From: Bacilli bacterium
Lineage (GTDB): Bacteria > Bacillota_I > Bacilli_A > RFN20 > CAG-826
NCBI GenBank assembly: GCA_017635565.1
Contig: JAGBLE010000001.1
Location: 2,039-66,038 of the forward strand
Length of the DNA: 64,000 bases
Direction: 5' to 3'
Shown here: one piece after another, positions 8,009 to 50,991 of the stretch
Layout of the letters: every line of letters begins with the position of its first letter
Position numbering within the stretch: the stretch's first letter is position 1
Translations under genes and position numbers: made by a program
The notes under the pieces: generated by a model
Database searches by the model: none
What the model saw: the letters and a program-made list of their open reading frames with translations, nothing else
Told to the model about the DNA's origin: nothing

Positions 8009-8033
8009 ATATAAGTCTCCAAAATCTAAAGTA

Positions 8034-8059: not shown

Positions 8060-8071
8060 ATAAATTATTAA

Positions 8072-9778
8072 TTAGTTGTGTTGTTCTGCAGCAGCAAAAT
8101 CTTGTTTATGTCTTTCTTCAAGAGCGTCAACAATTTCTTTATGTTTTTCTTCAGTAATTGTGTATCCAAAATGCATGAGTAACCATGCAGCAACTACTGA
8201 GGCAACTAAAACAACAACAATTAAGATACCAGCAATACGTAACATATCGCTTGTTGCGGCATCTTTTGCCGCCATAACGTTGTTATAGAAATCTTCTGCT
8301 TCAGGAATTTCAGCTCCGCCACCAATAGGAGTGACAGTAGTTGTTCCAGAACCAGTAAAGATATTATGTCTATTTTCTGCATCAGAAATAGCTTGAACAG
8401 CTGGCATTAATCCTGCCACTAAGAAGATGATGTATTGGAATCCTCTAAGTAAAGCAGATGATAATTTAACATCAAGTGGTCTCCAAGCAGAAATGATTGA
8501 TTCCTTTCTTTCACCAAATTGATATTCGTTATAATCGATAGCGTCTTGGAACATAACCATGATTGCAAGATACATCATGCCCATTCCAAAGAAGAAGATG
8601 AATGGGAAGACATAATATAAGAACATTGTTCCACCAAAAGCCCATCCTAAATCCATATTGAAGAATTTTTCATATCCGACTGACGCTGCTTCGTTATACG
8701 CGATAGCGTGTTCTCCAAAAAGAGGAATACAGCAGAGGAAGAATCCAGCAAATCCAATCATTTGGATAATAAATGAAATAGTTAAAATCTTTTGTTTACT
8801 AATTTTCTTAGCAATAACAGGATATAAAGCCTGAGAAGAGACCATTGCAAGAACGTACATTACAGAAATGACTGTTGAAACAAGTCCACCTCTACCAGAA
8901 CCATATCCTAAGGATAAATAGAAATAGTTAAGTCCGATACCACCGGTAAGAACTCCACTAGCTAAGTAATATAAGAACATTGAGATAATCGCAACTCTAA
9001 GTTCTTTATTTTTACCAAATACTTTAAATAAATCTAAGAAGTGAGTTTCTTCACTTGCTTGTACTTGGTTAGGATCTTCTTTTCTTTCCTTACAGAATAA
9101 GAAAACCGCTAATTGAGATAATAAGAATAATACTGATACCACTATCGCTAGTATCATGTACATCTGTGCTGAGGATAAATTTGAGAACATGGTTGGAAGT
9201 AACATACATCCAGCAGTCATAATAAATCCACCAATAGAGGCACAAACTGTCATTTTAGAAGTGATAGATGCTCTTTCGTGTTCATCATTTGTTAATGATG
9301 GAAGCATTGACCAATAACCAATATCGTTAATGGTAAAGAATAAGTCCCATAAGAAATAGAAGGCAATCATAACGCCGACAAATGCCCATCCATCAGCATT
9401 ACCTGCTCCATCTACAGGTCTTATTAAGAACATACAAACGACCGCGATTGCATTACCAATAGCGCCGAGTAAAATCCATGGTTTAAATTTACCAAGGTTC
9501 TTGAAACGGAATTTCTCAACAATGAATCCCATAATAGGATCGTTAATTCCATCCCAAATAAGTGCAATAATCATTGCGATTGTGATGACTCCATATTGCG
9601 CTTTAAAAGCCTCTGGGTCCGAACTTAAAACACCACTGTTAATGGCGTATTGAAGTAAGAAGGATCCAACTAAGGCGTAGCAAGCATCTCTAAAAATGCC
9701 TGATAATGGGAATAACCACTTAGTTAATTTAGGAATCTTATTTCCTTCATAAGTGGCGTTTACATTCAAAAAGCCCAT
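8072..9778 (-). CDS. glycoside-pentoside-hexuronide (GPH):cation symporter family transporter
   Basis: 568 aa polytopic protein with a MelB/GPH-like N-terminus (...DACYALVGSFLLQYA..., DPIMGFIVEK). AAAGGAGAA RBS. Confidence 0.7.
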   Translation of the reverse strand: MGFLNVNATYEGNKIPKLTKWLFPLSGIFRDACYALVGSFLLQYAINSGVLSSDPEAFKAQYGVITIAMIIALIWDGINDPIMGFIVEKFRFKNLGKFKPWILLGAIGNAIAVVCMFLIRPVDGAGNADGWAFVGVMIAFYFLWDLFFTINDIGYWSMLPSLTNDEHERASITSKMTVCASIGGFIMTAGCMLLPTMFSNLSSAQMYMILAIVVSVLFLLSQLAVFLFCKERKEDPNQVQASEETHFLDLFKVFGKNKELRVAIISMFLYYLASGVLTGGIGLNYFYLSLGYGSGRGGLVSTVISVMYVLAMVSSQALYPVIAKKISKQKILTISFIIQMIGFAGFFLCCIPLFGEHAIAYNEAASVGYEKFFNMDLGWAFGGTMFLYYVFPFIFFFGMGMMYLAIMVMFQDAIDYNEYQFGERKESIISAWRPLDVKLSSALLRGFQYIIFLVAGLMPAVQAISDAENRHNIFTGSGTTTVTPIGGGAEIPEAEDFYNNVMAAKDAATSDMLRIAGILIVVVLVASVVAAWLLMHFGYTITEEKHKEIVDALEERHKQDFAAAEQHN

Positions 9779-30120: not shown

Positions 30121-31044
30121 TCAAAAATTATGTTTTTTTATTAGCTCTTCTATTTCATCTAATGAAGGAACAACATCAATAGCGCCTTTCTTTTGAGTGG
30201 CAAGCCCTCCCGCTATATTAGCTCTTAAAAGGCAATTTTTAATTTCTTCTTTATTAGCTAAATCAAATCCTTTATCAAAAGCGTATAAGAAATAAGAATA
30301 GAAAGCATCTCCCGCTCCTGTAGTGTCAATAGGAGTTAATTTATAAGTAGGAACTTCAACATATAAATCTTTGCTATAAAATAATGATCCATCTTTTCCA
30401 AACGTCACTACAGCAACTTGTTTATCATTTAATATCGATTTTAGGGCTTCTAAGAGATTTTTTTGAGAAGTTAATAATTCTAACTCTTCTTCAGTAAATT
30501 TAACGATATCGGCCTCTTTTAAAGCAGAAAGGAAAATTTCTTTAGCTTCTTTTTCACTACTAAAGATATCATCACGATAATTGACATCGAAAGAGACTAA
30601 CGCTTTTGAATGTTCATGAACATATTTCACTGCCTCAAAGAAGAACTTTCTTCCTTTTTCGTAGGAAAGCATTAAAGAACCAATATGAACAATCTTTACA
30701 TTATTCAAATCGAATTTAGAAAGATTACTAACATCTAAGATGTAATCACTACCATTATCTCTTACAAACTTAAACGATCTTTCTCCATTATCAAGAGTGA
30801 CAATCGCTTGAGTAGTATCTCTATTTTCAATTTTATCAATATATACGTTATTAAGATTTTTATGAGCAAAGTCTAATAAGAATTTTCCATATTCATCATT
30901 ACCAACCGCTCCATAAAAAGATATATCTCCATTAAAGTTAGAAATATTAGAAGCAACATTAAAAGGCGCTCCTCCTGGAAAAACAGTTTTGTTATTTCCA
31001 TCCACAAATATATCTACTAAAATTTCTCCAATTGATAAAACCAT
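30121..31044 (-). CDS. fructokinase (PfkB family)
   Basis: GEILVD...GGAPFNVA N-terminal motif and DTTGAGDAF ATP motif. Last gene of the fructan locus. Confidence 0.8.
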   Translation of the reverse strand: MVLSIGEILVDIFVDGNNKTVFPGGAPFNVASNISNFNGDISFYGAVGNDEYGKFLLDFAHKNLNNVYIDKIENRDTTQAIVTLDNGERSFKFVRDNGSDYILDVSNLSKFDLNNVKIVHIGSLMLSYEKGRKFFFEAVKYVHEHSKALVSFDVNYRDDIFSSEKEAKEIFLSALKEADIVKFTEEELELLTSQKNLLEALKSILNDKQVAVVTFGKDGSLFYSKDLYVEVPTYKLTPIDTTGAGDAFYSYFLYAFDKGFDLANKEEIKNCLLRANIAGGLATQKKGAIDVVPSLDEIEELIKKHNF

Positions 31045-35830: not shown

Positions 35831-37165
35831 CTATAAATATTTAATAAGCTTTGTATTTTTGCTTTTAATAACAATTTGTAATAAATCATCACTTAAATCT
35901 GGATAAATAAGTGAAGATAATGATTTTCCATCGACGAATAATTCAACTGAAAATTCATCCATGACCAAATAGATTTCATGTTTCTTATTTTTGATATAAG
36001 GAAGCTTTCTTATTCCATTTAATGAATCAGAATCAGTTTCGTTTCCTTTTATTTCTTTTCCAGAATGACTTCGATCAAAAACCCATTCGTTTTCATTTAA
36101 ATAGAAAATGGTTTGATGTTCATCTCCTTTTCTAAAAGAAATATGTAAAGATTCTAAATCGGTTATTTCTAATTTGTAGAAGCCATATTTTACGTGTTCA
36201 ACATATTCTATATCAGTAATATCTTTTTCTTCTTTTTTGTTTTTTGGTAAAACAGGCTTTTGATATAATTCGTTATTTTTAACGCTTATATGACGAGGAA
36301 CAGTAAGACTTCCCGCAAAACCATATTCTTCGCTTGGATTATTTCTGTCCCACATATCAAGCCACCCGATTAAGATGTTATCTCCCAAAATCACTTGAGG
36401 AGCGTAAAAATCAAAACCGTAATCAATCATTCCTTTATTAGTTTTATTAAATTTATGATCAACAAATTTACCAATTTCCCAATCAGTGGAATGAATGTTA
36501 TGGTGAAGATATCCATTTACTGGTTGAAATTGTTCACAGTAAAGAAGAAGATTTAAATCTGAAACATAATCAGGACATTCAATCATGACGCCTTCACTAT
36601 CGGAAGGTAAGATTGAAGAAACAAATGTCCAAGATAACAAATCATTTGATTCATATCTTAAGATATTTCCTCTTCCTTCTTTTCTTCTAGCGGCGACAAG
36701 CATAACGAAATGATTATTTTCTTTGAACACCATTGGATCTCTAAAATCATTTGGAGCAAATTCTTTTGGAAGATTATCTTCTCCGATGATTAATCCAAGC
36801 TTTTTAAAGTGGATTCCATCTTCGCTATAAGCAAGACATTGTTGTTGCCTAATCTTTTCTGGATCTTCGTTAAATATAAAGCCAGTATAAACAACATATA
36901 ATTTGTCTTCATAAACAAAAGCGGAGCCAGAAAAACATCCATCTTTATCAAAAGTATCACCCGGAGTTAAAGCGATAGGGAGATGTTCCCAATTTAATAA
37001 GTCATCACTGATAACATGTCCCCAATGCATTGGTCCCCATGTAATTCCGTAAGGATGGTGTTGATAAAAAACATGATATTTTCCTTTAAATTTAATTACT
37101 CCATTAGGATCATTAATCCAATTACTTGGAGCGGTGATGTGAAATTTTGGTCGAATATTATTCAT
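35831..37165 (-). CDS. cytoplasmic GH32 beta-fructofuranosidase (sucrose-6-P hydrolase / FOS hydrolase-like)
   Basis: FHITAPSNWINDPNG, FRDP and ECPD catalytic motifs, no signal peptide. Start set to ATG 37165 (MNNIRPKFH), overlapping the upstream stop as ATGAATAA. Confidence 0.85.
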   Translation of the reverse strand: MNNIRPKFHITAPSNWINDPNGVIKFKGKYHVFYQHHPYGITWGPMHWGHVISDDLLNWEHLPIALTPGDTFDKDGCFSGSAFVYEDKLYVVYTGFIFNEDPEKIRQQQCLAYSEDGIHFKKLGLIIGEDNLPKEFAPNDFRDPMVFKENNHFVMLVAARRKEGRGNILRYESNDLLSWTFVSSILPSDSEGVMIECPDYVSDLNLLLYCEQFQPVNGYLHHNIHSTDWEIGKFVDHKFNKTNKGMIDYGFDFYAPQVILGDNILIGWLDMWDRNNPSEEYGFAGSLTVPRHISVKNNELYQKPVLPKNKKEEKDITDIEYVEHVKYGFYKLEITDLESLHISFRKGDEHQTIFYLNENEWVFDRSHSGKEIKGNETDSDSLNGIRKLPYIKNKKHEIYLVMDEFSVELFVDGKSLSSLIYPDLSDDLLQIVIKSKNTKLIKYL

Positions 37166-39635
37166 ATTTTGCTTCGAGTCCTGTGACAAGAGAGTCGCTA
37201 TTTTCGTAATAAGTGACAAAATCATCCGCAAATAATAATCCCCAATCAGAAGAAGCATTATCCACTAAACGGATTTTGACTTTTCTTCCCATGAAGCTGC
37301 TTAAATCAGCGACATATTGGACCATATTTGCCATATAAATGTCATCATTACTTAAATCAATTGGTTGACCATTATAGAAATAACGTCTCGCCATTTGATC
37401 ATTGAATTTATAATTTGAGAATTTGATTAAAGATTCTTCAGTGGTTGAATCAATAATTTCAACATAAGTATTCTCTTTATTCTTTCCTCCACCGAGTTTA
37501 AATGAAATATATCCAGTTCCACCGATAGTGAATTCACTACTAGTTAATGAACCAGTTGCTTCTTCTTTTCCATTCCATCCAGAGAAGAAATATGTTCCTG
37601 TTTTATTGAAATCATACCATTCATTCCACCAGACTTCGTCATAGCCAATATTACCGATTTCTTCTCCACCAGTTGAGAAAGTCCAACCAGTGAAATCACC
37701 TTTTTCAAATCCACCATTGAGAACTTGATATTCATTAGTGGTTTCCGTAGTTGGTAAAATATCAACCGCATCATAATAAGAAAGAGGTAATGAATTTTCA
37801 TTTACATAATAAGTAATGAAGCTATCAACAGTAACTAAGCCCCAATTATTTGTAGCGAAGTCATTAACGCGGATATATACTTCTTTATCCATGAATTCAC
37901 TGATATCAGCGACATATTGAACCATGTTCATTAAATTTGAACCTTTGTTAAGTAGAGAAGTTCCTAAATCATGGAAATATCGATTTGCATATCTCGCTAA
38001 TTCTTGATTTGTTTCTTTGTCATATAAGGAGATATAGCAGAATCTTGGATCTTTTCCTCCGCCAAATCTAAATGACATCTTTCCAATGCCGCCTACTTTA
38101 AAGCTTTCACTTTGAATGTATCCGGTTAAGCTTTCTGAAGTTTCTCCAGATAATAAATATCTTCCATTTTTATTAAATGTGAATCCTTCATCCCACCATC
38201 CATCTTTATCGGTGACGGTTGCAAAAGCATCACCCACTAAAGTCCAATTCTCGAGATTTCCTTTTTCGAAAGTACCGTTTTTAACTTGGCATTCACTTTC
38301 AATTTCTGTTTCGATATTAATCATTGAATGAGCTTCAAAATGATCCTGGTTATAGAAAGTTGGTTTCTCAGGATAATATGTATAAATTGAATCTAAAGTC
38401 ATGCACGCTAAATCATCAGGACTTGTGTTATTATCCACAACTTCAATATATAAAGTGTCACCAATATATTCTCTTAAATCAGCGATATATTGGATTAAAT
38501 TAAGCAATCTCATTCCGTTAGCGACATACGGGAATTGGAAATCCCAATATGTGCGGTGAGAATATCTCGCCACTTCAGTTGAAGTTGAGTCATCAATAAC
38601 TTTGTAAATTGATAAATATGTTAAATAATTTTCACGACATCCACCGAGTTTAAAGGAAATATAACCACTACCGCCAAGTTTAAAACGAGTTGATCTCATT
38701 TTTCCAGTTGCGGAAGGTTTATAGTAGCCATAATGGTAATCGCCTTCTCTTTGATAAGAGATATTTTCATTCCACCATGTTGATTCGTGATTAATTCCTT
38801 CATTTGAAAACGCTAATCCTTCAATTACTTCCCAACCCGCTAAAGAGCCAAGTTCAAAATCTCCGTTAGCGATTTCATATTCACTAGGAGCGGTTGCTTC
38901 TTCAACGTATTGACGGGTTTTGACGTAATATTCGCCTTCTTCTTGAGGATCTTCTCCGCCAATGCGAATATCATCAACAGAAAGGTAGCCATAATATACA
39001 TCTTTGTCGTTATCAACGATACGAACATATAATTCTTCGCCGATATATTCTGCTAAGTCGATTTCATAATCAACAAAGTTATCAGTGCTATAAACACCAG
39101 CGTTATATTTCTTAACGTCAACATATTCTTCCGTATGTTCGATGAAATATTCGTTGATTTGTTTAGCAATCATTCTGTCATCACTAGCGCGATAAACACC
39201 GAAATAACAAATTTCTGCGTCACTTTTTCTTGCTGCTCCAGTTCCTTTTCCTCTAGTTGAAGCTCCGCCTGCTAATTTAACAGCAATCGAACCATCTCCA
39301 CCGAGTTTGAAGTTATTGGATCTAATCGCACCAATTCTTCCATTTGAATAAGTTCCATCAAAACCTTTACCAGAAAGATACCAATTACCTTCTTGTCCAA
39401 TTTTGATTTCGACGTGTTCTGGATCATAAGAATAAGTAAATGTTTTGTTTGATGAAACCGAACCATCATCAAAAGCGTTACCGTATTCAATCGTCCATCC
39501 AGATAAATTTGATGATTCAAATCCACCATTGATGAGAGTTTCTCTAACTGGATCAATTATCTTAGTTTCGGTATTAGAACAACCACTTACCGCAAAAGCA
39601 ATAATTGGTAAAAGAAGACAATATTTCTTATGCAT
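37158..39635 (-). CDS. 825-aa lipoprotein made of four tandem ~190-aa beta-sandwich-like repeats (putative fructan-binding)
   Basis: Lipobox IIAFAVSGC. Four repeats, each opening NG.FE.G.L.GW and containing F.LGG.G.ISFKLGG and ...D.F.TYY. Confidence 0.6.
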   Translation of the reverse strand: MHKKYCLLLPIIAFAVSGCSNTETKIIDPVRETLINGGFESSNLSGWTIEYGNAFDDGSVSSNKTFTYSYDPEHVEIKIGQEGNWYLSGKGFDGTYSNGRIGAIRSNNFKLGGDGSIAVKLAGGASTRGKGTGAARKSDAEICYFGVYRASDDRMIAKQINEYFIEHTEEYVDVKKYNAGVYSTDNFVDYEIDLAEYIGEELYVRIVDNDKDVYYGYLSVDDIRIGGEDPQEEGEYYVKTRQYVEEATAPSEYEIANGDFELGSLAGWEVIEGLAFSNEGINHESTWWNENISYQREGDYHYGYYKPSATGKMRSTRFKLGGSGYISFKLGGCRENYLTYLSIYKVIDDSTSTEVARYSHRTYWDFQFPYVANGMRLLNLIQYIADLREYIGDTLYIEVVDNNTSPDDLACMTLDSIYTYYPEKPTFYNQDHFEAHSMINIETEIESECQVKNGTFEKGNLENWTLVGDAFATVTDKDGWWDEGFTFNKNGRYLLSGETSESLTGYIQSESFKVGGIGKMSFRFGGGKDPRFCYISLYDKETNQELARYANRYFHDLGTSLLNKGSNLMNMVQYVADISEFMDKEVYIRVNDFATNNWGLVTVDSFITYYVNENSLPLSYYDAVDILPTTETTNEYQVLNGGFEKGDFTGWTFSTGGEEIGNIGYDEVWWNEWYDFNKTGTYFFSGWNGKEEATGSLTSSEFTIGGTGYISFKLGGGKNKENTYVEIIDSTTEESLIKFSNYKFNDQMARRYFYNGQPIDLSNDDIYMANMVQYVADLSSFMGRKVKIRLVDNASSDWGLLFADDFVTYYENSDSLVTGLEAKYE

Positions 39636-42141
39636 AAACTAATTCCTCCAAAGTACCAGTATTGCCGTAATAGGCAGGGGTTGTTTCATCAAAATAAATG
39701 CTATCGAATTTTGTAATCTTAACATCGCTAACAGAAATATTAGCGTTATTATCAAAGAAGTGGAGATAATCACTATCGCTACATTTTGGATAAATACGAG
39801 ATGTGATTTGATCTTTGTTATTGATATAAACTTCTAAACAAGAACGATCCATCAATATTGTTAATTCGATATTTTTTTCATGAATTCCAAATGTATTTGT
39901 ATCTGATTTATCAACATAATCTAATAAAGTTGAATCAGTACGGTTGACAAAGACTCCATTATCATTGATAACAATTGAAGATCTTTCAGTTCTTCCAGCG
40001 ATAACATTTTTGTTATATCTAACATGGAGACCAGTAGAATAATTAGAATCACTATTAATATGAATCTTAGCTTTAATTTCTAAAGCATCTCCACGAATAT
40101 TTTCAATTTCACTATTGATTTCATTTACGTTTAATGAAGTACCTGCTTCTTGTTCGTAAAGAACTTCACTATAAGCAGAAGTGAGTTCTTTAATTGGTTC
40201 TCTAAGAACAGTTTTTCCATCAGTATCTAAATGAATTTCAACTGGCATGGCTAAGCTATGCGCCCAACCAGCGTCAATATTTTGAGCGGTTCCCGCTGAT
40301 TTACCTTGGGCTAAAGCAATGATGACTGTTCTTCCTTCATCATATCGAGTTTTACCATTAGCCTTATCTTCTTCAGTTAAATAACAGAAACCAGTTTGAC
40401 CTGTGTATATTCCTTTACCATAATCAAATAATTTTGGTTCATGATCATCAGGAATAAATTTACAAGTTGTTTTATCGAATTGACCAATCCAATAAAGACA
40501 ATCGACAACATATCCATCCACTGTATATTGTGGGCAATCGAATAAAATATATTTTTTAATGCTTCCATCTTTTGATGAAATTGGGAACATAACAACGCAT
40601 TCCCAGTGTGCACCTTGAACTGGATATTGATCAAATGGACATTCATATAAATAGCCGTGATACGTCCAGTCACGCATATTTTTAGAAGTAAATACGTTAG
40701 CGGAACCACCTCTTCCAGGGATTGAAGTTGAAACGAGCATATAGTAAATTCCATCATCAAACCAGACAAATGGATCTCTAAATTGTTCTCTTTCACCCAT
40801 GATATCTCCCGCTGGTTGAGTAATGGTTACTTTATCTTCCACTATCCAGTCAGTTAAATATGGATCATCAGGATCAGCGCAATGTGCAAAAGCGATATTT
40901 TGACCAGTCCATGTTGAGGTGTTAGTGCCAGCAGTAATGATAAGCCAAGGGGTTCCATCAGGACCAATAACAGATCCACCAGTCCAAACTCCTTCTGGGC
41001 ATATTCCTTCAGTTGGAACAACCGCATCTTTAACGCTTTCCCAATGAATTAAATCTCTTGAAGCGAGATGAGCCCATCTAATTTGTGACCAATATGGTCC
41101 GATTGGGTTATGTTGATAAAATAAATGATACATTCCTTTGTAATATATTGGAGCGTGTGGTTCATTCATCCAAACCGCTGAAGGGATTCCGTGATAAATA
41201 CTACGATAACGATCTCCTTCATATTGAGAGCGGTCTTCTTTGACTTCATCAAAAGGTAAGACTGGATGATTTCCATTAACGCATCCTGCTAAATATTCAT
41301 CTCTCACTGTTTTAAGTGGTAAAGAATCTTCATATAATTTGAAATCATCAATTAATCCAGCTGGATATTGTCTATGACAACCAAATTCAATTTGAGGGGA
41401 ATTGTAATAACAGACATACATTTTTTCATAGGAAGTAATGATTTCTGTATCCACTAATTCTGGGATATAAGATTCATACGCTCTTTGACCGTTATAAAAA
41501 AGAGCGATATATCCAGTTTTTCCATCATAACTCGCTGCGATATGATTCCATTCATATAATTTTAATTTATTAAGAGGATCATAAAATCCCATCATAAAAT
41601 CATCGTCAGTTTCATTGTTGTGTAAACAGAGTTGAAGACCCCATTTTCCAAGCCTTCCATATCCAAATGTAAAGCCTTCACCATTTTCCATATGACCTTG
41701 ATTAGCAATCGCAGATAAACGTGGATGACCACGAGCGATTGATTCCCAATCATAATCAACAAGGTTTTCAAATCCACGAGGCGCAATCCAACAAGAAATA
41801 GTTAATTTATCAGTTGGGGTATCAAAATCATTAAGAATCATTCTAGTTGAGTGACCATCAAGATATAAGGAAGAACCGTGGACTCCTTGTTTGAAAAGGG
41901 GATCGCTTGGCGCTTTAAATATCTTTTCAGCGTTTGATTCATTAAAAATATAATTGACTTTTTGCCTTTCTCCCGTGGCTTTGTTAATGATGTATTCTTT
42001 GTCATGAGAATCAAAATCAAAATTAATTTTTAAATTTTTTGAATAATCGTGAGAAGAACTTGAACCCGCTCCATTTGAAGTACAGGAAAAGAGAACAAAA
42101 CTAGTAAGAAATAACGTTAATAATTTATTGATTTTTGTCAT
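39628..42141 (-). CDS. 837-aa lipoprotein GH32 fructanase with N-terminal LamG-like domain (endo-type WMNEP motif)
   Basis: Lipobox FVLFSC. LamG pattern SLYLDGHS...ISCWIAP...NHIAASYDG...LIDDFKLY. GH32 motifs VWMNEPHAPIYYKGMYHLFYQHNP, FRDPFVW and WECV. Confidence 0.8.
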   Translation of the reverse strand: MTKINKLLTLFLTSFVLFSCTSNGAGSSSSHDYSKNLKINFDFDSHDKEYIINKATGERQKVNYIFNESNAEKIFKAPSDPLFKQGVHGSSLYLDGHSTRMILNDFDTPTDKLTISCWIAPRGFENLVDYDWESIARGHPRLSAIANQGHMENGEGFTFGYGRLGKWGLQLCLHNNETDDDFMMGFYDPLNKLKLYEWNHIAASYDGKTGYIALFYNGQRAYESYIPELVDTEIITSYEKMYVCYYNSPQIEFGCHRQYPAGLIDDFKLYEDSLPLKTVRDEYLAGCVNGNHPVLPFDEVKEDRSQYEGDRYRSIYHGIPSAVWMNEPHAPIYYKGMYHLFYQHNPIGPYWSQIRWAHLASRDLIHWESVKDAVVPTEGICPEGVWTGGSVIGPDGTPWLIITAGTNTSTWTGQNIAFAHCADPDDPYLTDWIVEDKVTITQPAGDIMGEREQFRDPFVWFDDGIYYMLVSTSIPGRGGSANVFTSKNMRDWTYHGYLYECPFDQYPVQGAHWECVVMFPISSKDGSIKKYILFDCPQYTVDGYVVDCLYWIGQFDKTTCKFIPDDHEPKLFDYGKGIYTGQTGFCYLTEEDKANGKTRYDEGRTVIIALAQGKSAGTAQNIDAGWAHSLAMPVEIHLDTDGKTVLREPIKELTSAYSEVLYEQEAGTSLNVNEINSEIENIRGDALEIKAKIHINSDSNYSTGLHVRYNKNVIAGRTERSSIVINDNGVFVNRTDSTLLDYVDKSDTNTFGIHEKNIELTILMDRSCLEVYINNKDQITSRIYPKCSDSDYLHFFDNNANISVSDVKITKFDSIYFDETTPAYYGNTGTLEELVYA

Positions 42142-43052
42142 AATTTTAATCCTCCTGCTCCAAATCCTTTGACAATATATTTTTGCGCGGCAACATAAAC
42201 GATGAAGATTGGAATTGATGTGATGACGAGTGATGCCATCTTTTGACCAGTTTCTGCCGCAGGGTCACTATTAATAACCGTAAGCGTTGCTTGAATTGGC
42301 CATGCTTCTTTTGGTAAGACCATCGTTGGCCAGAGATAATCATTCCATACTCCGATAAAGCAGAAGACAGCCACTGTTGCTAAAATCGGTTTTGATAATG
42401 GAAGAATAACTTTTAAGAATACTTGGAATGTATTTGCGCCATCCATTCTTGCAGCTTCTTCGAATTCTTTTGGAATTGAAGAGAAGAATTGGATGAATAA
42501 GAAGATATTGAATACGGATATTGATGCTGGACAAATGATTGCCAGAATTGAGAATTTATCAACAAATCCAAGCATCGACCGACATATGAGATATAAAGGA
42601 ATAATTGATGATTCAACAGGAACGATAATCAAAAACATGATGATGAAATTGAAGAAAGCTTTCCCAGGGAAACGAAGCTTACAAATCGCATAAGCCGCCA
42701 TACCATTAATCAAGATATTTAAAACGATGGTGATGCCTGCGTAAATAAAACTATTCAAAGCGTGTCTACCGACTTCATATTTTCCATTGAATAAAGTTGC
42801 ATAATTATCAAAGATGCTACTGAAGTGGGCAAAATCAGGAATAAACATTCTAATCGTTCCAGCATCGTTAGCGATTGCTATCTCACTTTTAGTGGAAGCT
42901 GCAATCATATAAATAAGAGGGAAAACGAAAATTAAAGATAAAATCGTTCCAAAAACGTAATAGATAATTTTTTCATAAATTGTCTTTTTTCTTTTTTTAA
43001 CAATCGTGACTTCGTTATCGTTAATTAATTCACGTATATGTTTCTCTTTCAT
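42138..43052 (-). CDS. carbohydrate ABC transporter permease (MalG-like)
   Basis: EAA loop FEEAARMDGANTFQVFLKVILPLSKP. 6 TM helices. Confidence 0.85.
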   Translation of the reverse strand: MKEKHIRELINDNEVTIVKKRKKTIYEKIIYYVFGTILSLIFVFPLIYMIAASTKSEIAIANDAGTIRMFIPDFAHFSSIFDNYATLFNGKYEVGRHALNSFIYAGITIVLNILINGMAAYAICKLRFPGKAFFNFIIMFLIIVPVESSIIPLYLICRSMLGFVDKFSILAIICPASISVFNIFLFIQFFSSIPKEFEEAARMDGANTFQVFLKVILPLSKPILATVAVFCFIGVWNDYLWPTMVLPKEAWPIQATLTVINSDPAAETGQKMASLVITSIPIFIVYVAAQKYIVKGFGAGGLKL

Positions 43053-44032
43053 TTTCTTTTTTCTCCAAGTAATTTCCTTTGTAAGAAGGTAATCGTGCCA
43101 GTAAAGATGGTCATAAGTAACGCGATTGCGCTTGAATAACCAACTAAATATGGGAAGTCATAAGCTTGTCCATACATGAAATAACTAATTGTGATGGCTT
43201 TTGGATCATATGATCCCACCATTAACATTGGTTGAACCATGATTCGACATGCGCCAATAAAAACAGTAATTAAAATATAAAGTAATGTTGGTTTTAATCC
43301 TGGGAGAGTTACTTTCCAGAATCTCTTCCAAGCATTACATCCATCCATTCTTGCGGCTTCATATAAATCTTTTCTAATACCACTAAGCGCGCTAGAGAAG
43401 ATTAACATTTGATATCCTGCTCCTTGCCAAGCTGAAACGATAACAATCCAAATCATTGTCGTATCTGGATTACGTAAGAATTCTTGTTGAGGAAGTCCAA
43501 AGGACATCAAGATTGTGTTCATTAATCCATCTGAACTTGGATCAAGTAAGATTAACCACAAATAAGAAGTAACCGCTAAAGAGATGACAACCGGAGCAAA
43601 GAAACAGACTTTGAATATCGTTCTTCCTTTGTATTTAACATTGCAGAATAACGCGAGAAGAAGAGCGACTGTGATTTGTAAAGGAACGACAAGAACGACA
43701 AATATCGCTGTATTTTTAATCGCAATAGCAAGCGTTCCACCATTTTTGATTTCTTCAAATGCTGCTTTGAAGTTTTCAAATCCAATGAATTTCCCGCCGT
43801 CTGGTTCAAATAATCCAGTATCAGTAAAGGCATAGCCTAATGAATATAAGATAGGTAAAGCAATGAAGAAGAATGCGAATATTGCTGCTGGTAAAATAAA
43901 TAAGAAAGCCGTTATCACCTGTTTAGTGTGATATTTAGTGTTATTTTTCTTCGCTAATAAGACGTCAACAAAAACAACAACACCGAAGATGAATAACAGA
44001 ACAGCAAATATTATGATCGCAATTTGAAACAT
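43049..44032 (-). CDS. carbohydrate ABC transporter permease (MalF-like)
   Basis: EAA loop YEAARMDGCNAWKRFWKVTLPGLKP. Overlaps neighbouring genes by 4 nt. Confidence 0.85.
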   Translation of the reverse strand: MFQIAIIIFAVLLFIFGVVVFVDVLLAKKNNTKYHTKQVITAFLFILPAAIFAFFFIALPILYSLGYAFTDTGLFEPDGGKFIGFENFKAAFEEIKNGGTLAIAIKNTAIFVVLVVPLQITVALLLALFCNVKYKGRTIFKVCFFAPVVISLAVTSYLWLILLDPSSDGLMNTILMSFGLPQQEFLRNPDTTMIWIVIVSAWQGAGYQMLIFSSALSGIRKDLYEAARMDGCNAWKRFWKVTLPGLKPTLLYILITVFIGACRIMVQPMLMVGSYDPKAITISYFMYGQAYDFPYLVGYSSAIALLMTIFTGTITFLQRKLLGEKRK

Positions 44033-44050: not shown

Positions 44051-45313
44051 CTATTTAATTTTGTCTAATTCGGTTTGTAAGCTTGATGTGAAGCTATCAA
44101 CAACTCCATTGACTTCTTGGTTATAAATACCATTGATGATATTGGCAAAATAAGCAGAGAATTTGCTATATCCCACCATTTCTGGTCTTGGTGTTCCAGA
44201 TAATTCGAGTTGTTTACGTAAAACATATTCTGCTGAATTAATTTCGTAATCATTTCCAAGTGTTTTATGAGCTGGAATCATTCCAGTAGCGTCAGTAATA
44301 ACTTGAGCAGATTCAGGAGTGGATAACCATTTTAAGAGGGCTCTTCCTGCTTCTGTATCTTTTGTTAAACCATAACTCCAGCTACCAGTAGCACTAGCAG
44401 CGGTAACATCTTTCGGATAAGGTAATAATCCCCATTCATCTCTATTTTTCTTATATTTGTGGAGTAAATCTGGGATTGTCCAACCACTAGAAAGATACAT
44501 ACCAGCTTTTCCAGTAAAGAAATCAGTTGCCCCAACAGAATAACTTGTATATCCGTTTGTCACTAAATCTTTGAAGAATTGGAAGCCACGTTTTGAAGCA
44601 TTACTGTTTAAGTGGCCAGTGACTTTTCCGTTTTCATCAACAAAATCACCGCCAGCCGCATAAATAAATGGATAAAGTAAATATGTGGCAGTTTCATCTC
44701 TAGTCGCATCTAATCTCATATCAACAGGAGTGGCAACTCCATGATCTTTAAGTCTTCTACAAACATCTTTGAATTGATCAAATGTCCAAGGGTTTTCTAC
44801 TGTGTAACCTGAAACATCAATTCCAGCTTCAGCAAAAATTGTTTTATTGTAATAAAATCCAGCACTTGATTCTTGAATTGGGATTCCATATGTTTTTCCT
44901 TGATAACGGTTAAGAGTGATGAATTCATTCTTTTCTTCTTCAGTAAAAACATCATCAACATTAACAACTAATTTGTAATGAGCGTAAGTTGAACAGTTTG
45001 GTGAGTCAAAAGTAATGATTGAAGGGAGGGTTCCTTCTTGTTTCATTGAAATAAGAACTTGTTCATAACTCGTTGTTCCTTGAGTTCTTGCAACAAAATC
45101 TGCAGAAGCTTTAATCTTTTGACTCTTATAAGCAGAGTTAAAGGCGTTAATACGTTTTTTATACGCCATACCTTCTTCAGATTGTCCATCGACGTGGAAC
45201 ATAACCTTAACAATTGTGTTTCCTGATGAATCTTGTCCACCATCTTTTTCAGAAGATCCACCACATGAAGTTAACACAAGGATTGGTAATGCTAATAAAC
45301 ATAATTTTTTCAT
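44051..45313 (-). CDS. extracellular sugar-binding lipoprotein of the ABC transporter
   Basis: Lipobox LVLTSCGG. 420-aa family-1 solute-binding-protein-like sequence. Confidence 0.8.
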   Translation of the reverse strand: MKKLCLLALPILVLTSCGGSSEKDGGQDSSGNTIVKVMFHVDGQSEEGMAYKKRINAFNSAYKSQKIKASADFVARTQGTTSYEQVLISMKQEGTLPSIITFDSPNCSTYAHYKLVVNVDDVFTEEEKNEFITLNRYQGKTYGIPIQESSAGFYYNKTIFAEAGIDVSGYTVENPWTFDQFKDVCRRLKDHGVATPVDMRLDATRDETATYLLYPFIYAAGGDFVDENGKVTGHLNSNASKRGFQFFKDLVTNGYTSYSVGATDFFTGKAGMYLSSGWTIPDLLHKYKKNRDEWGLLPYPKDVTAASATGSWSYGLTKDTEAGRALLKWLSTPESAQVITDATGMIPAHKTLGNDYEINSAEYVLRKQLELSGTPRPEMVGYSKFSAYFANIINGIYNQEVNGVVDSFTSSLQTELDKIK

Positions 45314-45327: not shown

Positions 45328-46302
45328 TTATTTAGTTGTTTTTCCTTTGACGAATTTTGTTTTTAATAATGTGATTTGATTGACTTCTTTACCGTTAATA
45401 ATGTCAATCAATATTTTAAATGATTGTTCCGCCATTTCTTTTATTGGCTGCTCAATAGAAGTGACAATTGGAGCGTCTTCCCAAGAATTGAACACTCCAT
45501 CATAACTAATGAGTTGTATATCTTCTGGGAATTTCTTTCCCATAGAAACATATTTGTTATAGATGTATGTGGAAGAGGAACTTCCAGAAGCGAAGACTGC
45601 ATCAACATCTGGATATTTTTCGATGAATTTATCAACAAGTTCTTTTTCTTCTCCGTGTTTCACTACTTCATAAACGATATATGGCGTGTAGTTATGTTCT
45701 TTCATTACATCGAGATAAGCTTTTTCTCTAAGAGTAACTTCACTTTCCACGAATGGTTTAGTGCCGATAAATCCGATTTTTTTAGCCCCAGTACTAATGA
45801 GATATTCAATCGCTTCTTTTGTCGCCTCATAGTTATTACTAGAGACAAATGGGACAACATGATTTAAGTGACGGTCAATACTGACAAGTGGAAGGCCATT
45901 AATATCTTCGTTTTTATGTTCGTAGTGGGTGACAAATATCGCTCCATCGATTTCTTTCTTTCTTATTTTCCACAAGATGTCTTCCTCTTTTTGTTCATCC
46001 ATTTGTGAAGTTAATAAGATTAATGAATATCCTTCTTTTCCTGCGATATGTTCAAGACATTCGACAAATTCTGCAAAGAATGGGTGATTGATAACTGGAA
46101 CAAGAACTGCGATAACTCCACTATGCTTTTTTCTCAATCTCGCGCCATTGACATTAGGAACATAATGGAGTTCTTCAATGGTTTTAAGAATTTTTTCACG
46201 AGTGGAATCTTTAACAGACTTATCTCCAGAAATAACTCTTGAAACAGTCCCTAATCCGTATCCGCTTTTTTTCGCGACATCATTAATTGTTACTTTTGCC
46301 AT
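45328..46302 (-). CDS. LacI-family transcriptional regulator
   Basis: MAKVTINDVAKKSGYGLGTVSRVISG HTH plus a periplasmic-binding-fold C-domain. Embedded mid-operon, with a 20-nt overlap onto the upstream GH32 gene. Confidence 0.85.
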   Translation of the reverse strand: MAKVTINDVAKKSGYGLGTVSRVISGDKSVKDSTREKILKTIEELHYVPNVNGARLRKKHSGVIAVLVPVINHPFFAEFVECLEHIAGKEGYSLILLTSQMDEQKEEDILWKIRKKEIDGAIFVTHYEHKNEDINGLPLVSIDRHLNHVVPFVSSNNYEATKEAIEYLISTGAKKIGFIGTKPFVESEVTLREKAYLDVMKEHNYTPYIVYEVVKHGEEKELVDKFIEKYPDVDAVFASGSSSSTYIYNKYVSMGKKFPEDIQLISYDGVFNSWEDAPIVTSIEQPIKEMAEQSFKILIDIINGKEVNQITLLKTKFVKGKTTK

Positions 46303-49300
46303 GTGATTTCTTCTTTCTGATTAATAAGAATGCTACTGTTCCTAAGGCAACTACTCCAACGGAAGCAGCAATAACAACGATTAATAAAGTTACATTCATT
46401 TGTTTTGGAACCGTGACTTCAACTGGTCCGTTAATGATGTTATTAACGTAAACTGTAAATGTGTATTGATCATTGATTTCAACTTCAACTTCTTCTGAAT
46501 CAAATAATTCTGAATCGATATGGAGAACGTAATCAGAAACGTAATAATCAGTAATTTCTTCTCCATTAAGGGTGACTTTGTTAATCGCTAATGTATCGAC
46601 ATATATTGTCACTTCTTGACCATAATTGATGGTTTGATCAAAGAAGTAATAATTGCGGTTAATCGTGTTAGTTTTGATTTTGATATTGAAAGAAGAGAAT
46701 TCGCCTTCAACAAAGAATTCATATGTCTTATTATCTTCAAGTAAGCGCATATATTCTTTGCTTAAGATGATGTCTCGACCTTCAACTTTATAAAAGCCTT
46801 TTGCCACTAATTCGTTTTTCTTAGTGACGTTATAAATGTTTTTGATATATTGAGTAACACCCGCGTCAATATAGACATCATCATTATCGAATTCATAATA
46901 TTCTTTGATGATGGAGAACTCTTTAATGACCGCTCTTCCAGAGAAGACATTGAGTCCGATATATCCACTTTGCGGATCAGTATTATTTAAAACGTTATTA
47001 CCGGTTTGAACTCCATTAACATAAGTGATTAATCTATTTCCTTCAAATTTTGCAGTTAAAATGACATTCGTGTCACTCACTTCAATATTTGATGAAGAGA
47101 TACTTCTATCTTTTGTCCAAACTTTCGATACTTTTTCATTTTTGTCGTAATTGAACATGATATAAGAAGACATGTCCTTACTTGCTCTAAGTAACATTCC
47201 TCCAGCAGTCGCGGAAGATAAATCAAAAGTCACACTATAAGTTGTATCACTACTTTCTAAATCAGAAATGTAATATCCATCTCCATTTTTTTGTTCACCA
47301 ATTAAGTTACCTTGTTCAATTCTCCAAGTTCCTGAATAAATATCTTCTTTATTTAATGAGAAAGGAGAATCAAATGATGAATCATCGACTGTGACATTAA
47401 TGGTTTTTACATTATCTCCTGAAGTAGCTTCAATTACTGCTTCTCCACCTTTAAGAGCGGTTACTTTCGCTCCGGTTTTAGTCTCAGTAAGAGAAATAAC
47501 ATCTTCTCCAGTAATAATTGTCCAATTGATTTCTTCTCCAATTGAAGAATATGCAAAGATGTCTTTAGTGTCTAAAAGAGACATATCTAATTTCACATCA
47601 GCGGAATCGAGATATAAAATTCCATCTTCAATTTCTCCATCTTCTTTCCAAATGCTTTTCATTTCATTTACTTGGAGTTCATCAATGTTGATTTCTCCAG
47701 AAGAAGAAAGAGAAGCACCGATAGAATAAGGAGCAGCAAGAGTTAAATTATAGAAGTTATATTGATATTCACCTGCGAATAATTCAAGCGCTCCATTATC
47801 GACTAAAACGTAGAATGATAATGAGGTTTCATCTACTGGACCAGTAGTAAATTTGTGATGATAATGTTTAACAAAATTAATTCCAGCGTCACTTGTATTT
47901 CGACGGTCAAAATAATAACCGTCATCTTTATTCCATCCGAAAGCGGTATATTCAGAATCACTGACATTAACTCTAAATTCAACGCTTTCTTTGTTTGGAT
48001 TTGAAATTTTTGATTTGATTTCTAATAAATGAGAAGTAACTCCTTCTAATGGGTTAGTTTCATTATTAAATGTTTGATTATTTATTGAAACGATATTGGT
48101 TTTATCAAAATCGTTATTATCAACAGTAATTGGTGTTTGAGTGAGTTTATAAGTTTCTCCAACTTTGCGTAATCCTAACGCAACAGGGATAGTCATTCCA
48201 CCATTCCATGGATATCTCACTTGAGCGTAGACACCACTTTCTGCATCGCTAGGAAGACCAAAGTTCCAGCTGATAGAAATATGTTGTCCATAATATTTTG
48301 AAGTTGTGTCATCAATATAGAAGCATTGAGCAGCGTAACTATCTTCACCGTAATCCATCTTCACAAAATCAGTTAATTTGGTAAAAGAGAATTGACCAGT
48401 AAGTGGATTATAGTAAAAATCACCAACGATATAATCTCGACTAGAAATAGTTAAAGCGTAGTGAGTTGTTCCATCATCAGCTTCAATCATTGAAACGGTT
48501 GTACATTCAGCGTAAATATAATCAAGTTCACCGACATAAATCCAATCTAGTAAGTTATAAGAGGCTAAAAACCAAATCTTATTTTGGGTTCCACCAGAAA
48601 GCGCCATACCCCAAATTTCAGTTTCTTCTCCATTTTTAACAAGTGGGAAAATAGAAGGGTCACGGCAATCGACTTTATAATCGACATTAATAGCAGCGCT
48701 TTGAGGAATATGTTGTCTTTTTACCCAAGTAAAACCACCATCATCACTGGTGATAATGACTTGGTCTTGTCTCATTCCATCTCGAGTGTAATAACCGAGT
48801 AAACCACTTCCATCACCATTTGGGAACCATCCTTTGGAATCAACAATTCCACTCATGCCTTTGTGATAAACCATGGCGACTCCACTCCAAGCATAACCAA
48901 CTCCTAAACCAACACCCATATCTCCATCATCTGGGAATAAAGCGATTGGGAGTTCTTGCCAGTGGACTAAGTCTTTACTTCTTGCGTGTCCCCAATACAT
49001 TGGTCCCCATTGTTGTGAAAATGGGTTAGTTTGGTAATACATATGGTAATAGCCTTGATAATATACGAGTCCATTTGGATCGTTATTCCAGTGGGCATAT
49101 TGCGAATAATGGAATTGATTACGATATAATTCAGTGTAATAAGAGAAATCATTTTTTCCATATGTGATTTCATTAAAATCAACAGAGGCGCGATAGACGT
49201 TATATCCTAAATTTCCTCCGTTATAAGTTATATCAGCAAAAGAATTTAAATCGATATCGTTATCAACACCAAATCTTTTAATGTTATCGATATAGAATTC

Positions 49301-49753
49301 TCCAAATGTTTTATCTTCATCTTTAGTGATGACAACTTTGAAATTATATTCGCCATATTCTCTTAAAGCAGGATTGATGACTCTCAATTCACTTTCATGA
49401 ACTTTGTCGTTACCAATAAAGCGTTCTTCTTTGACAACATTTGCTTTTAATTCACTACCATCTTTATAAAAATAAATGAGTTTTGTCCAGTTATCATATC
49501 GATCAACGTTAAAAACCCAATAATGATCATCTTCTTGAGCACCAAAAACAAGGCCACATGCTTGGCCTTCATTAAAATGGATTCTTGATGTATAAACAAA
49601 ACTTTCGCTTGCTTCATAACTTTGTTCCACTAAAGCGAAATCATCACCATCAAGATTAGTTAATTTATAATTTTCACCAACACTTTTTTTATTTAAGAAG
49701 TTTGGAAGAGATAACAACAGAGATGTAAATAATATAAGAAGTTTGGAAATCAT
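46283..49753 (-). CDS. 1156-aa cell-surface GH32 fructanase (exo-type WNNDPNG) with ConA-like, Big_2-like and lectin-like domains and a C-terminal TM anchor
   Basis: Signal peptide. FHYSQYAHWNNDPNG, CRDPSIF, EC(T) motifs. Ig-like ...VTALKGGEAVIEATSGDNVKTINVTV. ConA-like GTWRIEQGNL...GYIGLNVF. Tail VTLLIVVIAASVGVVALGTVAFLLIRKKK. Confidence 0.8.
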   Translation of the reverse strand: MISKLLILFTSLLLSLPNFLNKKSVGENYKLTNLDGDDFALVEQSYEASESFVYTSRIHFNEGQACGLVFGAQEDDHYWVFNVDRYDNWTKLIYFYKDGSELKANVVKEERFIGNDKVHESELRVINPALREYGEYNFKVVITKDEDKTFGEFYIDNIKRFGVDNDIDLNSFADITYNGGNLGYNVYRASVDFNEITYGKNDFSYYTELYRNQFHYSQYAHWNNDPNGLVYYQGYYHMYYQTNPFSQQWGPMYWGHARSKDLVHWQELPIALFPDDGDMGVGLGVGYAWSGVAMVYHKGMSGIVDSKGWFPNGDGSGLLGYYTRDGMRQDQVIITSDDGGFTWVKRQHIPQSAAINVDYKVDCRDPSIFPLVKNGEETEIWGMALSGGTQNKIWFLASYNLLDWIYVGELDYIYAECTTVSMIEADDGTTHYALTISSRDYIVGDFYYNPLTGQFSFTKLTDFVKMDYGEDSYAAQCFYIDDTTSKYYGQHISISWNFGLPSDAESGVYAQVRYPWNGGMTIPVALGLRKVGETYKLTQTPITVDNNDFDKTNIVSINNQTFNNETNPLEGVTSHLLEIKSKISNPNKESVEFRVNVSDSEYTAFGWNKDDGYYFDRRNTSDAGINFVKHYHHKFTTGPVDETSLSFYVLVDNGALELFAGEYQYNFYNLTLAAPYSIGASLSSSGEINIDELQVNEMKSIWKEDGEIEDGILYLDSADVKLDMSLLDTKDIFAYSSIGEEINWTIITGEDVISLTETKTGAKVTALKGGEAVIEATSGDNVKTINVTVDDSSFDSPFSLNKEDIYSGTWRIEQGNLIGEQKNGDGYYISDLESSDTTYSVTFDLSSATAGGMLLRASKDMSSYIMFNYDKNEKVSKVWTKDRSISSSNIEVSDTNVILTAKFEGNRLITYVNGVQTGNNVLNNTDPQSGYIGLNVFSGRAVIKEFSIIKEYYEFDNDDVYIDAGVTQYIKNIYNVTKKNELVAKGFYKVEGRDIILSKEYMRLLEDNKTYEFFVEGEFSSFNIKIKTNTINRNYYFFDQTINYGQEVTIYVDTLAINKVTLNGEEITDYYVSDYVLHIDSELFDSEEVEVEINDQYTFTVYVNNIINGPVEVTVPKQMNVTLLIVVIAASVGVVALGTVAFLLIRKKKSHGKSNN

Positions 49754-50991
49754 TATTTTTTCCCCTCCAAAATTGATTGTTTACTTTCAGAATCGAATAA
49801 ATGAATTTTGTCTTCGTTAAACCCGATTGTTAATTCTGTTCCGCTTTCTAATGTAGAAACTTCATTTATTGAAATAATGTAATCATTACTAGCGTTTTCA
49901 AAATGTGCGAATAAATGAGTGTATGAACCGAGGATTTCAGAAACGGATAAATAGAGATGAATCCCTTTTTCTTGAAGCAAAATATGTTCCGCTCTTAAGC
50001 CTAAAATAACTTCATGAGCTTCTCCATCGAGGAACTTCTCTTCAATCTTGCGCATTTTATTAATATCTAAAGAAACTGATTCGCCATTTTCAAAAGTCAT
50101 CAATAATTTAGAGGACTTCTTATCTTCTAATTGAATTGTGACATTAAAGAAATTCATTTGAGGAGTGCCAATGAATCCAGCGACAAATTGGTTGACTGGA
50201 TATTGGAATAAATCAGTTGGTTTATCAACTTGTTGAATAACTCCATCTTTCATAACAACGATTTTATTACCCATGGTCATCGCTTCGACTTGATCATGAG
50301 TAACATAAATAAATGTTGTTTTTAATCTTTGATGAAGTTTAACAATTTCACTTCTCATCGAAGTTCTTAATTTCGCATCTAAGTTACTTAATGGTTCATC
50401 TAAAAGGAAAACTTTTGGTCCGCGAACAATCGCTCTTCCTAAAGCGACACGTTGACATTGACCACCACTCATTTCAGATGGTTTTCTATTTAATAATTGT
50501 TTGATATCTAATATTTCAGCAGCCCACTGAACCTTTTCATCAATTTCTTGTTTGGTTAAATGTCTTTTTCTTACTTTTTCAACACCTTTATCATCAGTGT
50601 ATTTTTCTTCAATTTTTCTAATCTTTAAGCCAAAAGCAATATTGTCATAGGCTGAAAGATGTGGATATAAGGCATAGCTTTGGAAAACCATCGCCATATC
50701 ACGATTCATTGCATCAACGTTATTCAATAATTGTCCATCAAGATATAATTCACCAGCGGAAATATCTTCAAGTCCGGCAATCATTCTCAATGTTGTGGAT
50801 TTACCACATCCAGAAGGTCCAACAAAAACAACGAATTCACCATCTTCAATTTCCAAGTTAAAATCTTTTACCGCTACAAAGTCTTTTGGTTTTTCTTCTT
50901 TATTCTTTGAAAATAACCTTTTAAATATTGAAGGTCCTTTATCTCTTGAAGGATAGATTTTGTAGATGTTTTTGAGCAAAAGTTTAACCAT
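49753..50991 (-). CDS. msmK: sugar ABC transporter ATP-binding protein (MsmK/MalK/UgpC type)
   Basis: GPSGCGKST, MSGGQCQRVALGRAI, LLDEPLSNLDA, and a C-terminal TOBE-like domain. First gene of the fructan operon. Confidence 0.85.
   Translation of the reverse strand: MVKLLLKNIYKIYPSRDKGPSIFKRLFSKNKEEKPKDFVAVKDFNLEIEDGEFVVFVGPSGCGKSTTLRMIAGLEDISAGELYLDGQLLNNVDAMNRDMAMVFQSYALYPHLSAYDNIAFGLKIRKIEEKYTDDKGVEKVRKRHLTKQEIDEKVQWAAEILDIKQLLNRKPSEMSGGQCQRVALGRAIVRGPKVFLLDEPLSNLDAKLRTSMRSEIVKLHQRLKTTFIYVTHDQVEAMTMGNKIVVMKDGVIQQVDKPTDLFQYPVNQFVAGFIGTPQMNFFNVTIQLEDKKSSKLLMTFENGESVSLDINKMRKIEEKFLDGEAHEVILGLRAEHILLQEKGIHLYLSVSEILGSYTHLFAHFENASNDYIISINEVSTLESGTELTIGFNEDKIHLFDSESKQSILEGKK

Follow-up and report, generated by a model that had tools for sequence, protein, structure and literature searches.

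The gene examined here lies in a 64,000-nucleotide (nt) stretch of contig JAGBLE010000001.1 (positions 2,039 to 66,038) from the Bacilli bacterium assembly GCA_017635565.1, referred to below as the window. The gene (37158..39635) encodes P825, an 825-amino-acid (aa) lipoprotein of four modules that we assign to carbohydrate-binding module (CBM) family 38. P825 and the other features of its locus given below are on the minus strand. A prediction made earlier from the sequence alone (the original prediction) had described a lipoprotein composed of four tandem modules, and this was borne out by the open reading frame (ORF), the lipobox, and four matches to a hidden Markov model (HMM) of the module, as well as by orthologue clusters and AlphaFold2 (AF2) models.

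Gene structure and module anatomy of P825

The N terminus of P825, MHKKYCLLLPIIAFAVSGC, is a signal peptide closing in a canonical lipobox (aa 1 to 19, ending in AFAVSG and the cysteine; 39579..39635), as identified from the sequence and the orthologue alignment. The residues MHKKYCLLLPIIAFAVSG followed by C fit the lipobox pattern [LVI][ASTVI][GAS]C, and Cys19 is invariant, with the consensus LxGC, in 43 aligned P825 orthologues. A lipobox-like N terminus was present in 76 of 142 full-length family representatives.

Outside the 19-aa signal peptide, a tether of about 15 aa, and linkers of 20 to 25 aa, P825 consists only of its modules, which were delimited by motif alignment and the module HMM: R1 (aa 33 to 230; 38946..39539), R2 (aa 254 to 426; 38358..38876), R3 (aa 450 to 614; 37794..38288), and R4 (aa 637 to 814; 37194..37727). 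The modules are 165 to 198 aa long and 25 to 41% identical to one another, with BLASTP E values between 6e-10 (R1 versus R4) and 3e-39 (R3 versus R4), well outside the range of chance. The module HMM, which was built solely from P825-family modules, gave four full-length matches (aa 35 to 229, 255 to 423, 451 to 612, and 638 to 813) of 191 to 226 bits each. The motifs quoted in the original prediction are all present and in register when aligned, namely, the NGxFE openings at aa 36, 257, 453, and 640, the core motifs (FKLGGDGSIAVKLAGG and three others), and the closing motifs VDDIRIGG, LDSIYTYY, VDSFITYY, and ADDFVTYY. Most of the residues that all modules share are Gly and the Phe, Ser, and Asn of strand motifs, to which one Glu (in NGxFE) and two Asp (in VDN... 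and ...DDF) are added; the Glu and the two Asp resemble a structural metal site common in the CBM4/6/22-type fold. R1 is the most divergent module, with a 13-aa insertion after the GG motif and without the WW(N/D)E loop. This loop, found in R2 to R4 and in the first module of the fructanotransferases described below, is a candidate sugar-binding element.

The 8-nt overlaps that had been noted with glycoside hydrolase family 32 (GH32) genes on both sides were confirmed, and both neighbors are GH32 by Pfam (Glyco_hydro_32N, 1.4e-55 and 1.8e-86). The upstream overlap, ATGCATAA at 39628 to 39635, holds the stop of the gene that we call GH32L and the start of P825, with a GGAGG 9 nt upstream of the P825 ATG. 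The downstream overlap, ATGAATAA at 37158 to 37165, holds the P825 stop and the start of the gene that we call GH32S. This second overlap holds because the ATG at 37165 (MNNIRPKFHIT, 444-aa product) was chosen over that of a listed 475-aa ORF (35831 to 37258), which starts 93 nt too early, within P825; GH32S orthologues, which begin M..RP.FHIT, favor the shorter ORF. Their distance from the stop of the P825 orthologue ranges from -11 to +94 nt, with the -8 overlap retained in three of them.

Assignment of the repeats to CBM38

The original prediction had recognized nothing beyond the opening of the module. That part needs revision, as the repeats correspond to the repeat of cycloinulo-oligosaccharide fructanotransferases (CFTases), CBM38. 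A profile search of 1.84 billion representative proteins with the module HMM yielded 2,208 clusters (50% identity) at an E value of ≤1e-3, 882 at ≤1e-10, and 328 at ≤1e-30. Among the best 150 family representatives, the modules were fused in 18 to a LamG-GH32 core homologous to GH32L, and GH32 was the only catalytic domain detected as a fusion partner. The fusions occur in Paenibacillus, Bacillus, and Caldicellulosiruptor and came only from the library-wide search; none was found among the module proteins of the 80 related loci described below. One of them, P0136, has modules at 40 to 208, 224 to 392, and 407 to 557, then GH32, and then a further module at 1332 to 1493 (module HMM), and its homologues include two named CFTases, from B. 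circulans (BAA24360.1/O52973, 1503 aa) and P. polymyxa (QDY82655.1, 1333 aa, in a cluster that includes AAL82574.1). The module HMM matched the P. polymyxa CFTase at 77 to 245 (202 bits, full length), 262 to 397, and 1170 to 1329 and the B. circulans CFTase BAA24360.1 at 59 to 227, 244 to 412, 425 to 558, and 1333 to 1490. By BLASTP, identity to CFTase module 1 was 44% over 174 aa for R2, 40 to 42% over 168 aa for R3, and 41 to 42% over 177 aa for R4, and R1 was 29 to 31% identical to the CFTase modules. GH32L was 32 to 33% identical to the LamG-GH32 core of the CFTases over about 800 aa.

CBM38 has been described as residues 32 to 389 of the P. macerans CFTase, a region of two beta-sandwiches that binds inulin and levan in the low micromolar range (PMC10076258, citing Lee et al. 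2004). The region defining CBM38 corresponds to that covered by two tandem matches of the module HMM; the similarity was tested on the P. polymyxa and B. circulans CFTases, not on the P. macerans entry, and the boundaries are second-hand from PMC10076258. In a Defluviitalea enzyme, dbCAN placed CBM38 at 44 to 189, 221 to 367, 409 to 527, and 1313 to 1448 around GH32 (PMC7355431), and these coordinates coincide with the module HMM matches in P0136, which has the same architecture. Judged by sequence similarity, the P825 repeat is therefore a CBM38-type module of the inulin- and levan-binding family. The association of CBM38 with GH32 recurs in P825, in the overlapping GH32 genes on both sides, the conserved upstream position of GH32L (see below), and the fusions. 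As the ligand of this characterized family is fructan, the proposal in the original prediction that P825 captures fructan is strengthened, not refuted.

Pfam and NCBIfam hold no model for the CBM38 module, and searches of P825 against both gave only sub-threshold matches (LTD, CBM_4_9, and the first 20 residues of NTTRR-F1). The Pfam CBM_4_9 model (PF02018) scored 12.2 bits (E = 0.24) against a threshold of 25.9, over the first 30 or so residues of one module, and matched weakly in 35 of the 43 orthologues (best E = 7.5e-5). No match to PF06439 or LamG was found in P825 by Pfam at E ≤ 1.

Two observations concern the CBM38 family at large. A "CBM38" has been reported between propeller blades IV and V of a marine Pseudoalteromonas GH32 (PMC13000452), which raises the question of whether the dbCAN CBM38 spans both the CFTase-type repeat and a propeller insertion. 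The library-wide search also contained giant module-bearing lipoproteins, P0123 (3900 aa, 10 modules) and P0135 (3220 aa, 6 modules), in which the module copies are regularly spaced by segments of about 275 aa; this suggests a larger composite repeat containing CBM38.

Predicted fold

The AF2 model of full-length P825 (predicted local distance difference test [pLDDT] score, 87.2; predicted template modeling [pTM] score, 0.65) has four all-beta domains with ordered linkers, and aa 1 to 28 have a pLDDT below 50. R4 modeled alone (pLDDT 93.6, pTM 0.89) is predicted to form an all-beta jelly-roll, consistent with the beta-sandwich described for CBM38. Foldseek searches with the full-length model were dominated by multi-jelly-roll proteins (reelin, Cry1Ac, GH101, and MAM proteases) with template modeling (TM) scores below 0.2; this result was therefore uninformative, and the search was repeated with a single module. 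The best PDB neighbors were then CBM27, CBM61, CBM4-2, CBM16, and newer porphyran- and alginate-binding CBMs. Domains of the gingipain adhesin, MAM, and Stig-cyclase types were also among the matches, and TM scores were about 0.5 to 0.65, with identities of 10 to 17%. This places the module at the superfamily level only. The CBM_4_9 and galactose-binding-like jelly-rolls share with P825 the NGxFE...GW opening, the closing (V)DD(F) strand, and the fold, again a kinship at the superfamily level only. Together with the weak CBM_4_9 matches, the Foldseek neighbors CBM27, CBM61, CBM4, and CBM16 agree with the placement in a CBM4/9/22-like, galactose-binding-like superfamily that had been proposed from the opening motif. 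A sequence search of the PDB with P825 gave no relative, and a PDB search with the module profile gave only 8xmz (E = 0.007), driven by the N-terminal motif.

Distribution and conservation of the P825 family

More than 844 clusters (90% identity) matched P825 over its full length at 54 to 99% identity, and almost all of these proteins were 820 to 860 aa long. The orthologues all came from metagenomes or metagenome-assembled genomes (MAGs), and no names or cultured carriers were found for them. Among 185,579 species-representative genomes, P825 relatives were present on 119 stretches (at least 119 species, almost all of them Bacilli and Clostridia of rumen or gut that have not been cultured), 80 of which were used for the locus comparison. 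These 80 loci were mostly from rumen and hindgut MAGs (cattle, goat, sheep, roe deer, reindeer, and buffalo), with others from chicken- and mouse-gut catalogues. The closest relatives (53 to 64% identity) were labeled Erysipelotrichaceae, Bacilli, or Anaeroplasma, and the remaining relatives were labeled Clostridia, Eubacteriales, or Christensenellaceae. The family is thus not specific to wall-less bacteria, as the relatives span Bacilli- and Clostridia-labeled MAGs. Four contigs with the same locus were labeled Coriobacteriaceae (L007), Hallerella (L015), Sodaliphilus (L052), and Prevotella (L076); these are either mis-binned Firmicute contigs or cases of horizontal transfer.

The gene order was essentially invariant: an optional GH32 gene, the LacI-family regulator, the solute-binding protein, two permeases, GH32L, P825, zero to two further multi-module proteins, and GH32S. 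A GH32L homologue was directly upstream of the P825 orthologue in all 78 loci with upstream sequence. The number of modules was exactly four in 78 of the 80 orthologues and five in the other two, and many module-specific residues were invariant in the 43 aligned orthologues. The module positions are therefore old and individually conserved. A recent tandem amplification of the P825 modules was ruled out, as each position is conserved across orthologues and the positions are only 25 to 41% alike.

The surrounding gene string

The gene string is headed by a MalK/MsmK-type ABC ATPase (49753..50991; Pfam ABC_tran and OB_MalK). It is followed by GH32_1156 (46283..49753; Pfam and sequence), a secreted GH32 with a C-terminal transmembrane anchor and a PF06439 (DUF1080) domain, and by a LacI-family regulator (45328..46302), identified by synteny, the sequence, and the LacI Pfam domains at the orthologous position in locus L081. 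An ABC importer comes next, with a solute-binding lipoprotein (44051 to 45313) and two permeases (43049 to 44032 and 42138 to 43052), assigned by Pfam SBP_bac_8/1 and conserved synteny, with -4 nt overlaps. GH32L (39628..42141) is a lipoprotein (LFSC) with Laminin_G_3, GH32 N-terminal, and GH32 C-terminal domains in Pfam, and GH32S (35831..37165; Pfam and NCBIfam) is a scrB-like, 444-aa GH32 without a signal peptide, presumed to be cytoplasmic. Beyond GH32S lie P916 (33067..35817; HMM and Pfam) and P599 (31100..32899; HMM), each with two divergent CBM38-like modules, and then a fructokinase-like, PfkB-family sugar kinase (30121..31044; Pfam PfkB, 3.3e-44). P916 also has a signal peptide, four Flg_new repeats, and a C-terminal transmembrane anchor, and P599 has a hydrophobic anchor at its N terminus and a tail of 130 aa that matches no family. 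The locus thus encodes a full set for import and catabolism beside P825. The intergenic gaps from the ABC ATPase to P916 are only -20 to +18 nt, indicating that this string is probably one long operon.

The module HMM matched P916 with E values of 8.5e-14 and 2.9e-4 and P599 with 3.9e-17 and 1.4e-9. With two copies each in P599 and P916 and four in P825, the locus therefore holds eight module copies, all of them in predicted secreted, membrane-anchored proteins. P916, whose Flg_new repeats are of the Listeria-Bacteroides type, and P599 probably also bind fructan at the surface. Loci of the Clostridia type have, in their place, proteins of 740 to 2113 aa with three to five modules.

The PF06439 (3keto-disac_hyd) domain of GH32_1156, at about aa 807 to 946, scored 27.9 bits against a cutoff of 26.8; the N-terminal 200 aa of the protein had no match in Pfam, and no LPXTG motif is present. 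If PF06439 is the family to which the levan-binding CBM66 belongs, fructan binders of both the CBM66-like and the CBM38 type would occur together in this locus. The LacI gene is located within the string, where it shares 20 nt with the end of GH32_1156, and the ATPase gene overlaps GH32_1156 by 1 nt. The surface proteins of the locus carry lipoboxes or C-terminal transmembrane anchors and never LPXTG. Anchoring of this kind would be compatible with a host that has hardly any cell wall or none, and some relatives are labeled Anaeroplasma.

Proposed function of P825

We consider it likely that P825 is a non-catalytic, tetravalent, surface-anchored fructan-binding lipoprotein that feeds co-anchored GH32 enzymes. 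After Sec export, P825 would be lipidated at Cys19 and held on the outside of the membrane in a Firmicute with a single membrane, where its four modules would hold soluble plant fructan (inulin, levan/phlein, or graminan) by avidity. The bound polymer would stay beside the co-anchored GH32 enzymes, the lipoprotein GH32L and the transmembrane-anchored GH32_1156, and the fructo-oligosaccharides released would enter through the neighboring ABC transporter, to be cleaved by GH32S in the cytoplasm and then phosphorylated by the fructokinase. The locus would probably be regulated by LacI. The computed basis of this proposal is the repeat anatomy, the CBM38 homology, the lipobox, the predicted fold, the synteny, and the gene fusions, and other products of the locus are also lipoproteins or anchored by transmembrane segments. 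From this basis we infer that the P825 modules bind fructan, that the protein is exposed at the surface, that it cooperates with the enzymes, and that the locus is regulated as outlined. Multivalent, lipid-anchored fructan capture, as suggested in the original prediction, is the best-supported function.

Several points weigh against this proposal. The CBM38 family itself goes back to a single biochemical study from 2004, and far greater divergence (about 20 to 30% identity) is seen in R1 and in the P599 and P916 modules, which may not share its ligand. The orthologues, all MAG-derived, are unnamed or annotated "hypothetical protein," and we infer both binding and localization. In addition, the pTM of 0.65 and the well-ordered, conserved linkers of the AF2 model suggest a rigid body rather than flexible beads, and a rigid body as predicted would fit a fixed enzyme complex as well as free capture.

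Such a complex is the subject of one alternative, in which P825 is an obligate noncovalent subunit of GH32L and the pair is a split version of the enzyme with three CBM38 modules, a LamG-GH32 core, and a fourth CBM38 module. The main task of P825 would then be to determine how GH32L is targeted to its substrate, how processive it is, or which products it forms, possibly including those of transfructosylation or cyclization. The fused enzymes do carry four modules around a core 32 to 33% identical to GH32L, the GH32L and P825 genes share 8 nt and occur in this order in all related loci, both proteins are lipoproteins, and P825 is predicted to be a fairly rigid multi-domain body. However, the modules of P825 and the CFTases do not correspond one to one: by BLASTP, R2 to R4 are all most like CFTase module 1 or 2, and R1 has no close counterpart. 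Simple gene fission, with a one-to-one match of R1 to R4 to the CFTase repeats, was therefore rejected. In many loci, one or two more multi-module proteins are encoded with no additional enzymes, a pattern suggestive of a family of binding proteins. On balance, we regard the subunit model as the main rival, though an unlikely one. An extended form, which we offer as speculation with a similarly low expectation, is that P825 and GH32L make up a two-protein membrane machine equivalent to the fused enzymes in divided form, with each of the four non-equivalent modules tuned to a different fructan feature (beta-2,1 linkages, beta-2,6 linkages, branch points, or chain ends), and that with P916, P599, and the ABC transporter they form a single-membrane "fructan utilisome" for grass fructans in herbivore guts.

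It is quite improbable that P825 binds a non-fructan ligand (another plant or host glycan, or a protein) and is an adhesin encoded in a fructan locus by chance. The fold is generic, and the Foldseek neighbors extend to gingipain adhesin and MAM domains and to reelin repeats; specificity switches are frequent in jelly-roll CBM families, and R1 is divergent. However, R2 to R4 are 40 to 44% identical to the inulin- and levan-binding module region (PMC10076258), GH32 is the sole catalytic fusion partner detected, and the synteny with GH32 is essentially invariant across 80 loci. The presence of Stig cyclases, which are CBM-like catalysts, among the Foldseek neighbors might also bring to mind a CBM-fold enzyme acting on fructans or their products. 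We give this hardly any credence, as no catalytic family matched in Pfam, NCBIfam, or PDB, the invariant residues are mostly Gly and strand-motif Phe, Ser, and Asn together with the Glu and the two Asp that are usual at a structural metal site, and the homologous CFTase modules are described as binding modules (PMC10076258).

Comparison with known systems

P825 has in common with the CBM38 of the CFTases of P. macerans, P. polymyxa, and B. circulans the module family, the tandem layout, the link with GH32, the predicted beta-sandwich, and the expected inulin or levan ligand. The CFTases and their Paenibacillus, Bacillus, and Caldicellulosiruptor relatives are secreted or SLH-anchored proteins that carry the modules on a catalytic LamG-GH32 core. 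In contrast, P825 is a stand-alone four-module lipoprotein without a catalytic domain, the GH32 core is encoded by a separate, overlapping upstream gene, and the carriers are Bacilli and Clostridia of gut and rumen that have not been cultured.

BT1761 is the levan-binding surface glycan-binding protein (SGBP) of the B. thetaiotaomicron fructan polysaccharide utilization locus (PUL). P825 shares with SGBPs of this type that it is a non-catalytic lipoprotein in a fructan locus, beside GH32 genes, with a presumed role in holding the polymer at the surface. The P825 locus differs from the Bacteroidota SGBP/Sus arrangement in having no SusC/SusD and no outer membrane, in uptake by an ABC transporter, and in its unrelated CBM38 jelly-rolls and tetravalency. 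P825 would work like an SGBP but is not a member of a Sus-like system. Context on the Bacteroidota fructan PUL can be found in 10.1101/2022.08.15.503959.

P825 and CBM66 are both fructan-binding beta-sandwiches, by prediction in the case of P825, that are tied to GH32 systems, but they belong to different families. CBM66 is reportedly the levan-binding module of B. subtilis SacC, as described by Cuskin et al. in 2012. The Ruminococcus bromii protein Sas6 (CBM26 and CBM74) is a non-catalytic multi-CBM surface protein. It shares with P825 the concept of a CBM-only surface protein that helps a Firmicute capture a dietary polysaccharide, and differs from it in binding starch, in dockerin/cohesin anchoring, and in its CBM families. 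CBM66 is mentioned in PMC10076258 and PMC12678895.

Both the CBM38 domain and the idea of surface proteins that bind glycans without catalysis (Bacteroides SGBPs and Gram-positive multi-CBM proteins) were known already. The claim of a new type of glycan-binding protein is not supported; the novelty lies in the architecture and context rather than in the domain, and P825 is not a surprising finding to a specialist. In the literature searched, we found no account that combines a stand-alone lipoprotein of four CBM38 modules, strict pairing of this protein with a LamG-GH32 lipoprotein, and wide conservation in uncultured herbivore-gut Firmicutes, nor any description of stand-alone CBM38 proteins or of Gram-positive fructan-binding surface proteins.

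For ruminants, the fructans of grasses and cereals are a major source of carbohydrate that can be fermented rapidly, and no prebiotic is more common than inulin. To our knowledge, surface capture of fructan polymers by Firmicutes is largely undescribed, unlike the levan system of Bacteroides. The P825 family is a widespread and concrete candidate for such capture. It also offers a route to a first CBM38 structure and a definition of the binding site, as no solved CBM38 structure is detectable by sequence, and a Pfam or NCBIfam model for the module would annotate hundreds of "hypothetical proteins" in gut MAGs as components of fructan loci.

Other features of the window

Rfam and tRNA scans of the window gave no matches. 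A 608-aa predicted lipoprotein (LVLGAC; 28095 to 29921, minus strand) without a Pfam family is encoded 199 nt downstream of the fructokinase gene. A separate sugar cluster at 3428 to 9778 comprises an MFS transporter, a GH2 enzyme, a DUF6937/DUF6938 protein (E = 1e-107 and 1e-92), and an MFS_2 transporter.

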